Shown: in pieces, positions 28,516-31,030 of the stretch
Numbering within the stretch: position 1 is the stretch's first letter
Layout: each line of letters opens with the position of its first letter
Source of the DNA: Bdellovibrionota bacterium
Lineage (GTDB): Bacteria; Bdellovibrionota; FAC87; UBA2466; JACKAF01
DNA length: 64,000 bases
NCBI GenBank assembly: GCA_041751875.1
Contig: JBGSIC010000018.1
Span: 32,723-96,722, forward strand
Reading direction: 5' to 3'
Made by a program: the position numbers and the translations under genes
The notes under the pieces: generated by a model
Databases searched by the model: none
Told to the model about the DNA's origin: nothing
Seen by the model: only the letters and a program-made list of their open reading frames with translations

Positions 28516-29214
28516 ATGGAAATCATACAAGAGTGTATCGCGTGGCTGGTGCAGGCGTTTCAAGTCCTCACCCATCTAGATGTTTATCTCAACCAGTGGA
28601 TTTTACAGTTTGGCGGCTGGATCTATTTGATCCTGTTCCTTATCATTTTTTGCGAGACCGGCCTGGTGGTCACACCTCTATTGCCAGGAGATTCACTGCT
28701 TTTTGCTTTGGGAGCTCTAGCGGCCGGTGAAAACGCGGCACTGTCTTTACCCTACCTTTTGGTGCTTTTATTTGTGGCGGGTGTGCTTGGCGACGCGGTG
28801 AACTACGCGATCGGAAACCGTTTTGGGAATCGGTTTTTTAAGAGTGAAACCTCTAAACTATTTAATAAAAAGCATTTGCAAAAAACGCAGGAGTTTTATG
28901 CTAAGTACGGGGGAAAGACGGTCATCATCGCGCGTTTTATCCCTATCGTGCGGACCTTTGCTCCCTTTGTCGCAGGCATGGGGTCGATGAGTTACAGCCG
29001 ATTTGCCTTGTTCAACGTGGTGGGCGCGGCTCTTTGGGTAGGTAGTTTTTTAGTGGCGGGATTCTTTTTCGGAAACATTCCGGCCGTCAAAACAAACTTT
29101 CACTACGTGATATTCGGAATCATTATCGTCTCGATTCTTCCACCAGTCTTTGAGTACTGGCGAGCCAGGCGCACGGCAACGTCACGTTCCACACTTCACG
29201 ACGGGCTTCACTAA
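28516..29214 (+). CDS. DedA/VTT (SNARE-associated) family membrane protein
   Basis: 232-aa polytopic protein. The GDSLLFALG and ARFIPIVRTFAPFVAG motifs are typical of DedA. Confidence 0.8.
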   Translation: MEIIQECIAWLVQAFQVLTHLDVYLNQWILQFGGWIYLILFLIIFCETGLVVTPLLPGDSLLFALGALAAGENAALSLPYLLVLLFVAGVLGDAVNYAIGNRFGNRFFKSETSKLFNKKHLQKTQEFYAKYGGKTVIIARFIPIVRTFAPFVAGMGSMSYSRFALFNVVGAALWVGSFLVAGFFFGNIPAVKTNFHYVIFGIIIVSILPPVFEYWRARRTATSRSTLHDGLH

Positions 29215-30086
29215 GGCGTTTTTCGAGGGGAACTTTCAATTCCCAGGAATTGAAATGCATTATTTAACGCATCTTTCACTACTGGATGCCGAGCTGCCGG
29301 TAATGATGCGGCCGCGACTCCTGTCGTGACCATCAAAGCACCACTTATAGTGTGCGGACCAAAATAAAGAGTCTCAAAAGCGACGCGGCAATTCGATGCT
29401 TTCGTGCTTTCGAAAGTTTGCTTGTGTTCGAGGAGCTGATTTTCCTGCTCGCTTGAGAACCGAAAAACTCCTCTTGTGCTCTCGATTTGTTCCAGCCAGG
29501 GTTTTGCTTCCTCGCGTGTTCTTAAGGCATCTATTTTTGCATAGTTGTTTTGCAATTCTCTTCGCTGTTTCTCCAGGTGAGTCAGCTTCTCATTTAGTGT
29601 TTGTCTGGTCATTCCCGCATAGCGTGCGTAAGCCAGGTCAGCCTCATAAGCAGCGGGCATCAGCAAAGCAATGGCGGTAAAGCCGGCGCCCAGGTGGATG
29701 GGAAACGGCATCGCGGGATCTAGATAAAAAAGATTCCAAGCCATGAGGGGGACGCCCCAGTTAAGGATCCGCATCTCCAGTCGATCGGACTTAGCTTCGT
29801 TATCAATGTACAGTCGTTTACTCCCCCAGCGGTGCTTGGGAACAAAATAATACGGAGTATGGGGTGGAACGCCCCAATCTGTGGAGTTGGCTTCCTTTAG
29901 AGCGCGTTCGTACGCGTCCCGCATGTACTCGGTTTGAAGCGCCAGTGAGTATACCAAGCTTTTACGATCGTCGTTCGAGCGCGCGTAATAGCGCTCCATG
30001 AATTCTTTTTGCACGCGTTCGAGTTCAGTCTCAGCAAATGTGAGACTGCAGCAAAGCACCGCCAAAATAAAAGCGATGAGTTTCAT
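29211..30086 (-). CDS. secreted hypothetical protein, paralog 1 (conserved C-terminal CRVAFETLYFGPHTISG motif)
   Basis: Signal peptide MKLIAFILAVLCCSLTFA from Met at 30086. Internal hydrophobic segment. C-terminal block shared with the upstream neighbour. Confidence 0.5.
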   Translation of the reverse strand: MKLIAFILAVLCCSLTFAETELERVQKEFMERYYARSNDDRKSLVYSLALQTEYMRDAYERALKEANSTDWGVPPHTPYYFVPKHRWGSKRLYIDNEAKSDRLEMRILNWGVPLMAWNLFYLDPAMPFPIHLGAGFTAIALLMPAAYEADLAYARYAGMTRQTLNEKLTHLEKQRRELQNNYAKIDALRTREEAKPWLEQIESTRGVFRFSSEQENQLLEHKQTFESTKASNCRVAFETLYFGPHTISGALMVTTGVAAASLPAARHPVVKDALNNAFQFLGIESSPRKTP

Positions 30087-31030
30087 GGATGGCCCGGTCC
30101 CCGATAACCCCACGGCGTTTGTGGTTGAGGTTTCTTTAGATTCCAGTCTTCAAGTTGGGTACTGACGAACGAGCGCAGATTCTGGTTGTATTTAAGGGGT
30201 GCAACAGCAGCTGCGACTCCGGCAGTAGCGTAAAACCATCCTTTAATGGTACGTGGGCCCAGGTAAAGTGTTTCGAAAGTAGCGCGGCACGTACTCACGC
30301 TTGTTTCGTCAAAGTTGTTTCGCCTCACTCGGATGCTGTTCTCTTGATCAGCGTCCACAGAGAAGGGGCCTTTTTCCTCCTCCCAAAGCTCTACCCAGGG
30401 ACGCAGCTCCGGATTTGCTTTAAGAGCGGCAAGTTTGTGGAGAGTGCCTTTTAAGTCAGCTTGCTTGTGTTCGATTTCCCAAAGCTTCTTTTCAGTATCC
30501 AGGCGGACTATCTGCTTTAGTCGAAAAAAGGTCATTGATAGCTCTAATCCGGTGAGTAGAATTCCGGAACCTAAACCACCGAGGATACCAATGGGAGCCA
30601 GTCCTTCGGCTAGTCCACCTACCGCATCTGCCGTGTTGAGAATGTTCCAAGAGGTAAGAGCACCGGCCCAAAGTAAGGGTCGCTCTCTGTAAATAGCTAC
30701 TTTGTTTTCCTCTCTTGTCAGAAGCCCAGGGTCCACGCGGCGCTTGACAGCGACGTAGGCGAAATCATTTAACGAACGAGGAGGCTGGGAGAAAAGTTCG
30801 ATAGGAGTTTTCTTAAGCAAGTTTGCGAGCTTATCGCGCTGTTCCGCGGCAGCTTCGGCGAGGCGTTGAACGAGTAATTCCTGCTCTTCTGGGGTGAGCT
30901 TGTTTACGTCGTGAAGAAATGCCTGTTGCCTCGGCGAAAGGTCGGTTTCGCCCGGTTCACCTACCGGTTCCCCCAAAAGAGGAAGACTAAAAAAAACAAG
31001 AATGAGAATGAAGATCGCGCGCATGGGCAC
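30083..31030 (-). CDS. secreted hypothetical protein, paralog 2 (conserved C-terminal CRATFETLYLGPRTIKG motif)
   Basis: Signal peptide MPMRAIFILILVFFSLPLLG. Same architecture as paralog 1. Its stop overlaps the paralog 1 start by 4 nt. Confidence 0.5.
   Translation of the reverse strand: MPMRAIFILILVFFSLPLLGEPVGEPGETDLSPRQQAFLHDVNKLTPEEQELLVQRLAEAAAEQRDKLANLLKKTPIELFSQPPRSLNDFAYVAVKRRVDPGLLTREENKVAIYRERPLLWAGALTSWNILNTADAVGGLAEGLAPIGILGGLGSGILLTGLELSMTFFRLKQIVRLDTEKKLWEIEHKQADLKGTLHKLAALKANPELRPWVELWEEEKGPFSVDADQENSIRVRRNNFDETSVSTCRATFETLYLGPRTIKGWFYATAGVAAAVAPLKYNQNLRSFVSTQLEDWNLKKPQPQTPWGYRGPGHP

Follow-up and report, generated by a model that had tools for sequence, protein, structure and literature searches.

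An ancient tandem pair of orphan genes encoding predicted exported all-alpha proteins in a Bdellovibrionota genome

Introduction

ClyA/HlyE, YaxAB/XaxAB, Nhe, Hbl and AhlABC are all-alpha proteins of about 300 to 400 amino acids (aa) in which a mid-sequence hydrophobic hairpin or tongue lies between long helices. In the bipartite and tripartite toxins of the ClyA type, the components are encoded by adjacent, often paralogous genes and must co-assemble, and the cysteines of ClyA serve as a redox lock. Neither ClyA nor YaxAB is known to carry a Sec signal peptide. PilN/PilO is a paralogous, translationally coupled heterodimer of the inner membrane, whose subunits are anchored by an N-terminal signal anchor and end in an alpha/beta domain of the ferredoxin-like type. 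In this study, we analyzed two adjacent paralogous genes, referred to as genes A and B, that lie next to ssb in a 64,000-nucleotide stretch (hereafter the window) of a Bdellovibrionota genome (contig JBGSIC010000018.1 of assembly GCA_041751875.1). Both encode predicted exported, all-alpha proteins, and we found no relative of either one other than its partner.

The two proteins resemble the ClyA-type toxins in being all-alpha (as predicted from low-confidence models, with mean pLDDT values of 38.7 and 46.1), in having a predicted mid-sequence hydrophobic hairpin and in being encoded by adjacent paralogous genes. However, they match neither the Pfam models nor the PDB chains of these toxins, they give no usable fold match, and their C-terminal region has elements that the toxins lack, namely a conserved Cys-motif, a hydrophobic helix and a tail rich in basic residues. 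With PilN/PilO they share tandem overlapping genes, paralogy, and a putative hydrophobic anchor combined with helical or coiled-coil segments. They differ in that the predictions for A and B are all-alpha and place one hydrophobic hairpin centrally and a further hydrophobic helix towards the C-terminus, and in having no Pfam match. The most hydrophobic helix of A carries GILGGLGSG, a GxxxGxxxG pattern as found in glycine-zipper proteins, although no Gly-zipper Pfam family matched at E<=1 and B has no zipper, so that this element does not define the family. The C-terminal region is also reminiscent of sorting signals such as LPXTG, PEP-CTERM, GlyGly-CTERM and MYXO-CTERM, in that a short motif (here with a Cys) is followed by a hydrophobic helix and by basic residues near the C-terminus. 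In A and B, however, a tail of 29 to 36 residues follows the helix instead of a few basic residues at the extreme C-terminus, and no NCBIfam/TIGRFAM model for sortase, exosortase, rhombosortase or myxosortase substrate signals matched. The likeness to the ClyA-type toxins, PilN/PilO and glycine-zipper proteins is architectural analogy, not homology.

Results

Genes A and B are old paralogues maintained by selection

An initial annotation of the window, made from the sequence alone, had described A and B as a tandem paralogous pair forming one unit. This was borne out, as BLASTP aligned the two proteins at 29% identity and 43% positives over 274 aa (E=2e-30) and the stop codon of A overlaps the start codon of B in an ATGA sequence. 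The alignment is co-linear from the signal peptide through the C-terminal block with zero frameshifts, and both open reading frames (ORFs) are intact, so neither copy is the frameshifted pseudogene that the annotation had allowed for. Conservation is highest in the C-terminal block, where 20 of 35 residues (57%) are identical, rising to 12 of 17 in the core CRxxFETLYxGPxTIxG. A shared block therefore does exist as had been claimed, but "near-identical" overstated the resemblance. Also invariant between A and B are PW(V/L)E, QEN and GVAAA, the last of which is constant within an otherwise variable hydrophobic helix.

The codons tell how old the duplication is. Aligned nucleotide identity between the two genes is 42%. 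There are 79 identical residues with degenerate codons, and these use the same codon in 20 cases and a different one in 59, as against the 27.3 shared codons that would be expected, given the codon usage of the host, after full randomisation of the synonymous sites. Almost all residues of the FETLYxGPxTI core are differently encoded in A and B. As judged from these codons, both copies show long-term purifying selection at the protein level, and neither recent duplication nor gene conversion. Because the synonymous sites are saturated, the duplication is ancient; of the earlier proposal that the family had expanded by tandem duplication, the paralogy stands, whereas a recent expansion does not, and the family has just two members. 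When a log-likelihood codon score was trained on 13 long genes of the window, the annotated frame scored +0.20 for A and +0.16 for B, similar to DedA, RDD and reference genes, and the five other frames were negative. On this evidence, both genes are real and protein-coding and have been kept by selection since an old duplication.

The deposited proteome contains both products (P0001, equal in length to the product of gene A at 313 aa, and P0002, the product of gene B). The assembly is also supported independently, as positions 27910-29966 and 30013-31349 are 100% identical to two contigs of a Logan assembly of run SRR28170465.

Expression signals of the pair

Gene A is preceded by a GAGGAG Shine-Dalgarno sequence (31035-31030) located 5 nt before the ATG at 31024; an alternative in-frame GTG start lies at 31030. 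The ATGA overlap suggests that translation of B is coupled to that of A. The initial annotation had placed a terminator between ssb and the pair, and one was indeed found there, with a 9-bp stem including 6 GC pairs followed by a T-run (Table 1). No terminator was found between A and B. Because the ssb terminator precedes the pair, A and B are most simply a bicistronic unit of their own. Its putative promoter would be a weak sigma-70-like sequence in the leader of gene A, TTGATT-18-AATAGT, which matches the consensus at 8 of 12 positions and was read by eye below the scanner threshold; the promoter scan of this strand returned zero sites at >=9/12.

At the other end of the unit, the stop codons of B and of the convergent DedA gene overlap (CTAA at 29211-29214), leaving zero intergenic space. 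There is no room for a terminator of either gene, and each transcript must therefore extend into the other gene in antisense orientation. For the plus strand, gene B contains a weak hairpin resembling a terminator (29398-29417).

Predicted architecture of the two proteins

In the product of gene A, a signal peptide and a helical N-domain precede a hydrophobic hairpin, which is followed by charged helices, the Cys-motif and a hydrophobic helix; the tail is basic and Pro-rich. B has the same architecture. The signal peptides that had been reported for both proteins were recognised by inspection and hydropathy as being of the Sec (type I) kind, which has a basic n-region, an h-region of 10-15 residues and small residues at -3 and -1. 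In each protein a basic residue is followed by a hydrophobic core of 13-15 residues. The signal peptide of B reads MK / LIAFILAVLCCSL / TFA, then E, and that of A, which is less canonical, reads MR / AIFILILVFFSLPLL / (L-L-G), then E. In hydrophobicity, the N-terminal segments of A and B match real transmembrane (TM) or signal segments. The lipobox [LVI][ASTVI][GAS]C is absent from both, the signal peptide of A having no Cys and that of B having AVLCC with L or C at -1; on this ground, neither protein groups with the bacterial lipoproteins.

The mid-protein hydrophobic stretch noted previously is present in both proteins and can be refined to two hydrophobic helices separated by a short break. 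Conserved residues in the hairpin of A include W119, W126-N127, P144-I145 and E161. Where A has its glycine zipper, B has GAGFTAIA, and the zipper is not conserved. The PW(L/V)E motif was recovered in both proteins, and the single conserved Cys assigned to the C-terminal motif could be described more sharply. A contains one Cys (C246), whereas two of the three in B (C12 and C13) fall within its signal peptide. One Cys would thus be left in each mature protein, at an aligned position (C246/C233), and in both proteins this residue opens the conserved C-terminal motif. The tails that follow the C-terminal hydrophobic helix are 36 and 29 aa long with net charges of +3 and +2. The hairpin has basic segments on both sides and an acidic loop.

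Structure prediction, which the initial annotation had proposed, supported an all-alpha organization but gave no fold assignment. The AlphaFold2 models of A and B were all-alpha with matching helix boundaries, and their mean pLDDT values (38.7 and 46.1) indicate low confidence, as expected from an input that was the two-sequence A/B alignment. In the N-terminal half, the modelled order is two N-domain helices, a Pro-containing linker and a helix-break-helix across the hydrophobic stretch, with the second hairpin helix running on into a long charged helix. In the C-terminal half, the PWxE helix is followed by one over QEN...CRxxFETLY that breaks off at GP, and then by the hydrophobic helix and a short terminal helix. 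A heptad scan of the pair found no strong coiled coil, and internal duplication within the proteins was rejected, as hhalign gave a probability of 0.2% for a match of the N-half to the C-half.

As a crude score of TM propensity, values of a Hessa-type biological hydrophobicity scale (2005) were summed over 19-residue windows and calibrated on proteins of the window. The known TM helices in DedA, RDD, GT2, DUF2142 and the SGNH protein gave values between -1.2 and about 5, as compared with minima of 3.8-8.9 for six soluble enzymes. The sole segment that is clearly TM-like is A 142-160 (LAPIGILGGLGSGILLTGL, with the GxxxGxxxG zipper) in the second hairpin helix, which scored 3.0. B 125-143 (5.3) and B 247-265 (4.7) are borderline, and A 259-277 (7.0) and A 117-135 (8.1) resemble buried helices of soluble enzymes. 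Whether A and B are embedded in the membrane, or are soluble with buried hydrophobic helices, is equivocal on these predictions and on the distribution of charge.

Searches for relatives

The absence of a known domain or well-characterised family, as first reported, held up in every profile library searched. Against Pfam-A at E<=1, only noise was returned, the top matches being Aldedh (E=0.089; 11.8 bits, where the cut-off is 23) and DUF4600/FemAB (E of about 0.03), which all scored well under their cut-offs. NCBIfam gave zero families for A or B, and the PADLOC models of anti-phage defence gave zero families for A, B, the SGNH protein or DedA. The sole match in PHROGs was phrog_2015 for B, below significance (E=0.13). 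PDB sequences, searched by phmmer with single sequences and with a profile, gave best E values of 0.3-0.6. A Foldseek search of the PDB with the better AlphaFold model matched only generic long helices, for instance in ABC exporters (best E=0.27, TM<0.17), which is uninformative given the low pLDDT of the query. It should be noted that the lack of a known domain is not unusual here, because 7 of the 27 other window proteins scanned (about one quarter), among them a 1099-aa ORF, also have no Pfam domain.

Broader searches likewise upheld the view that the pair is lineage-specific. A word-indexed search of 5.8 billion protein clusters returned the query itself alone, and an exhaustive HMMER search with the A/B profile against 1.84 billion cluster representatives, which stand for about 15 billion proteins, returned A, B and P0003 alone. 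P0003 is a spurious repeat protein that matched the Pro-rich tail only and was dismissed on inspection. The clusters of A and B are both singletons, and the copy number in the genome, another check that had been suggested, is two as far as the deposited proteome shows. When the A/B alignment was back-translated into patterns, scans of GTDB genomes, JGI metagenomes and IMG/VR turned up no relative. In metagenome and viral contigs, a degenerate DNA pattern encoding FETLYxGPxTI gave 0 matches, and tblastn found no match in 50,697 phage and 72,556 plasmid records. Neither a third copy nor a remote relative was found by tblastn, hmmsearch --max or regular expressions in the whole window and in about 6,300 ORFs of more than 80 related loci, and 80 ssb neighbourhoods contained no relative of A or B. 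Across the comparisons with Pfam, NCBIfam, PDB, PHROGs, PADLOC, the lipobox and C-terminal sorting signals, the pair fitted none of these known groups, and a Sec-type signal peptide is the one recognised feature that it does show. Within the sequence space covered, A and B form a new sequence family with two members, from one genome and one sample. A new sequence family is not evidence of a new mechanism, and orphan genes are ordinary in a sparsely sampled lineage.

The host and the locus

The host belongs to the Bdellovibrionota, as its ssb is up to 84% identical (best tblastn segment) to metagenome-assembled genomes (MAGs) labelled Bdellovibrionaceae, Pseudobdellovibrionaceae or Bdellovibrionota. 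The M16 peptidase, the HemW-like radical-SAM protein and the RDD protein are only about 60-66% identical to those of the nearest MAG (L002), and no genome of the same genus is therefore among those compared. When proteins are clustered at 90%, even the SSB and DedA of this genome are singletons.

Of the eight closest relatives, six (L002, L003, L004, L005, L007 and L010) have ssb and hemW adjacent with a gap of about 9-60 bp, in the order RDD, ssb, convergent hemW and then M16 where present. In the genome studied here, a lineage-specific block of four genes lies between hemW and ssb (Table 1). The same junction (around positions 10440-12440 of the L002-L010 loci) is occupied in L006 by an unrelated secreted protein of 272 aa and in L008 by typA; because different extra genes are found in these three genomes, the ssb/hemW junction is a hotspot of gene gain. 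The block contains no integrase, transposase or tRNA, its flanking repeats are short chance matches only, and it resembles the host in GC content and codon usage. Near the edges of the block there is an inverted repeat of 20 nt (80% complementary, 27156-27175 / 31181-31200), which is probably due to chance, one arm being within the 3' end of hemW and the other just past the ssb stop codon.

The SGNH protein is nearly an orphan, with 11 homologues, all at <=32% identity and in unrelated contexts; one of these adjoins a polysaccharide-synthesis cluster. DedA homologues (60-70% identity) are very common and are also found in unrelated contexts, where the convergent neighbours are an HNH protein or a HEAT-like secreted protein; one such homologue lies elsewhere on the same contig as relative L004. 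No pair-like neighbour was found at the loci of the SGNH and DedA homologues, and neither set of loci yielded a clue to function. Since these homologues sit in unrelated contexts, the four-gene block is not a conserved module. That an old duplication is absent from the sampled relatives may possibly be due to fast evolution, to repeated loss, or to an ancient gain of the already duplicated pair from an unsampled donor.

Table 1. Coordinates of the gene pair, its predicted elements and its neighbours in the window
Feature	Positions	Strand	Description
Gene A	31024..30083	-	313 aa; intact ORF; ATG at 31024, stop 30085-30083
Gene B	30086..29211	-	291 aa; intact ORF; ATG at 30086, stop 29213-29211; paralogue of A, same architecture
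ATGA overlap, A stop / B start	30083..30086	-	read in sequence
Intrinsic terminator of ssb	31144..31165	-	AGGGCTCG-TCCG-GGCGAGCCCT, then T-run; between ssb and gene A
Leader and promoter region of gene A	31025..31143	-	119 nt
Signal peptide of A (predicted)	30971..31024	-	aa 1-18, MRAIFILILVFFSLPLLG, then EP; without lipobox; by eye and hydropathy
Signal peptide of B (predicted)	30033..30086	-	aa 1-18, MKLIAFILAVLCCSLTFA, then ET; canonical T-F-A site; without lipobox; by inspection and hydropathy
Hydrophobic helical hairpin of A (predicted)	30530..30679	-	aa 116-165; two hydrophobic helices, short break
Hydrophobic helical hairpin of B (predicted)	29649..29771	-	aa 106-146; two hydrophobic helices, short break
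PWVE motif of A	30389..30400	-	aa 209-212
PWLE motif of B	29490..29501	-	aa 196-199
Conserved C-terminal block of A	30194..30289	-	aa 246-277; C246-RxxFETLYxGPxTIxG, then hydrophobic helix with GVAAA
Conserved C-terminal block of B	29295..29390	-	aa 233-264; C233-RxxFETLYxGPxTIxG, then hydrophobic helix with GVAAA
ssb	31654..31199	-	directly upstream of gene A
Lineage-specific block between hemW and ssb	27269..31198		3.9 kb; four genes: SGNH, DedA, B, A
SGNH/GDSL-type membrane protein	27275-28459	-	three N-terminal TM helices
DedA/VTT	28516-29214	+	convergent with gene B; VTT domain

Several other features of the window were recorded. A 6S (SsrS) RNA gene lies at 44779-44954 on the plus strand (Rfam RF00013, 82.9 bits over the full model length). 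A surface-polysaccharide (O-antigen-like) cluster occupies 33102-41971 and comprises GT2, formyltransferase, WbqC, methyltransferase, DUF2142, NAD-epimerase, DegT aminotransferase and GFO/IDH/MocA oxidoreductase genes; it is followed by pilM (42139-43314). No Pfam domain was found at E<=1e-4 in four further ORFs, namely 20144-23443 (+, 1099 aa), which adjoins the M16 peptidase gene, 18148-19734 (-, 528 aa), 16016-17047 (-, 343 aa) and 12642-13577 (+, 311 aa). Two small lipoprotein-like proteins, at 32321-32761 (-) and 34150-34584 (+), also have no Pfam match, and their signal peptides end in ...TTSGC and ...FISAC.

Discussion

The reading that we favour, tentatively and at somewhat short of even chances, is that A and B are co-expressed, Sec-exported, all-alpha proteins that form a stoichiometric, membrane-interacting hetero-oligomer of the cell's own envelope. 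A hetero-oligomer is suggested by translational coupling together with paralogy, and a membrane-interacting envelope complex by the hydrophobic elements; the neighbours within the block, DedA/VTT and the SGNH hydrolase with its three TM helices, are also membrane proteins. In this scheme, each protein would be exported via its N-terminal signal peptide, after which the Gly/Ala-rich central hairpin, with its zipper in A and its conserved Trp, Asn and Glu residues, would dip into or cross the membrane. The best-conserved part of the proteins (PWxE, QEN, C-RxxFETLYxGPxTIxG and the small-residue GVAAA helix) would form the contact surface between A and B. If this region is periplasmic, a lone Cys could form an intermolecular disulfide only, and this bond would hold an A-B (or A-A/B-B) dimer together. 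The two genes go back to an ancient tandem duplication and are now found among envelope-type genes, in the 3.9-kb block that this lineage acquired between ssb and hemW.

Several observations weigh against the proposed envelope complex. All hydrophobic segments other than the zipper helix of A are borderline or score like buried helices of soluble enzymes, and a hairpin with basic flanks and an acidic loop suits an N-out topology poorly under the positive-inside rule. If there were a single membrane-spanning helix, the Cys-motif would be cytoplasmic, and the disulfide idea would fail. The association with DedA and the SGNH protein is not kept elsewhere. Moreover, as there are no homologues, there is no covariation signal and no reliable three-dimensional model.

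The main rival is that A and B constitute a secreted, bipartite, alpha-helical pore-forming or membrane-damaging toxin, whose soluble bundles would hide the hairpin, co-assemble on the membrane of a prey or competitor cell and then insert their hairpins. By analogy with the ClyA type, the cleavable-looking signal peptides, the all-alpha predictions of about 300 aa with a mid-protein hydrophobic hairpin of about 45 aa between long charged helices, the glycine zipper in A, the tandem and translationally coupled paralogous genes, and hydrophobic segments mostly too weak for stop-transfer on the window-calibrated scale are all consistent with such a toxin. The host phylum includes predatory bacteria, and a single Cys per protein could serve as a redox switch, an idea that comes from ClyA. 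However, HlyE, Bacillus_HBL and other toxin families went unmatched in Pfam at E<=1, in NCBIfam and among PDB sequences, and the low-confidence model gave no better than the Foldseek values cited above. The genes next to the pair include none of the immunity-like, secretion-system or mobile-element kind, the conserved hydrophobic helix near the C-terminus and the basic tail behind it look more anchor-like than toxin-like, and a predatory habit is not established for this MAG. We consider such a toxin unlikely. A bolder proposal is that the pair represents a previously unseen two-component, disulfide-gated, alpha-helical membrane-inserting class in predatory Bdellovibrionota, either a prey pore-former or a complex remodelling the cell's own membrane, with no sequence kinship to known toxins; this seems less probable still.

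In a different scenario, a prophage or mobile element would have decayed at the ssb/hemW junction and left the pair behind, which could then be, for instance, a membrane pair of the lysis, spanin-like or superinfection-exclusion type. Phages do carry small membrane-active protein pairs with intermolecular disulfides (the Rz/Rz1 spanins), the 3.9-kb block is absent from six of the eight closest relatives, and the junction is a gene-gain hotspot that holds different extra genes in L006 and L008. Nevertheless, the block has host-like composition, with no integrase, transposase, tRNA or meaningful flanking repeats, the searches of PHROGs, the phage and plasmid records and IMG/VR were blank, and neither protein has a lipobox, unlike an o-spanin, all of which makes this origin very improbable. 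That A and B are non-functional, being chance ORFs, decaying pseudogenes or an assembly artefact, might be supposed from their occurrence in one MAG and one sample with no homologues, but this is effectively refuted by two ORFs of about 300 codons that align end to end (E=2e-30) with zero frameshifts, amino acids that were kept as synonymous sites became randomised, a coding signal that is positive in the annotated frame alone, a correctly spaced Shine-Dalgarno sequence and an independent Logan assembly that is 100% identical. The remaining probability belongs to something else.

Orphan envelope proteins are common, and nothing in the pair is strongly surprising to a specialist. As it is, the locus provides a clean case of an old, selectively maintained orphan gene pair. 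A saturated duplication with no relative in about 15 billion proteins means that: the lineage is under-sampled; or the family is fast-evolving or has been repeatedly lost. If A and B do form a membrane-inserting two-component complex, they would add a new sequence family to the few bacterial alpha-helical membrane-active systems, and would offer a way into the envelope or predation biology of a branch of the Bdellovibrionota that has hardly been studied.

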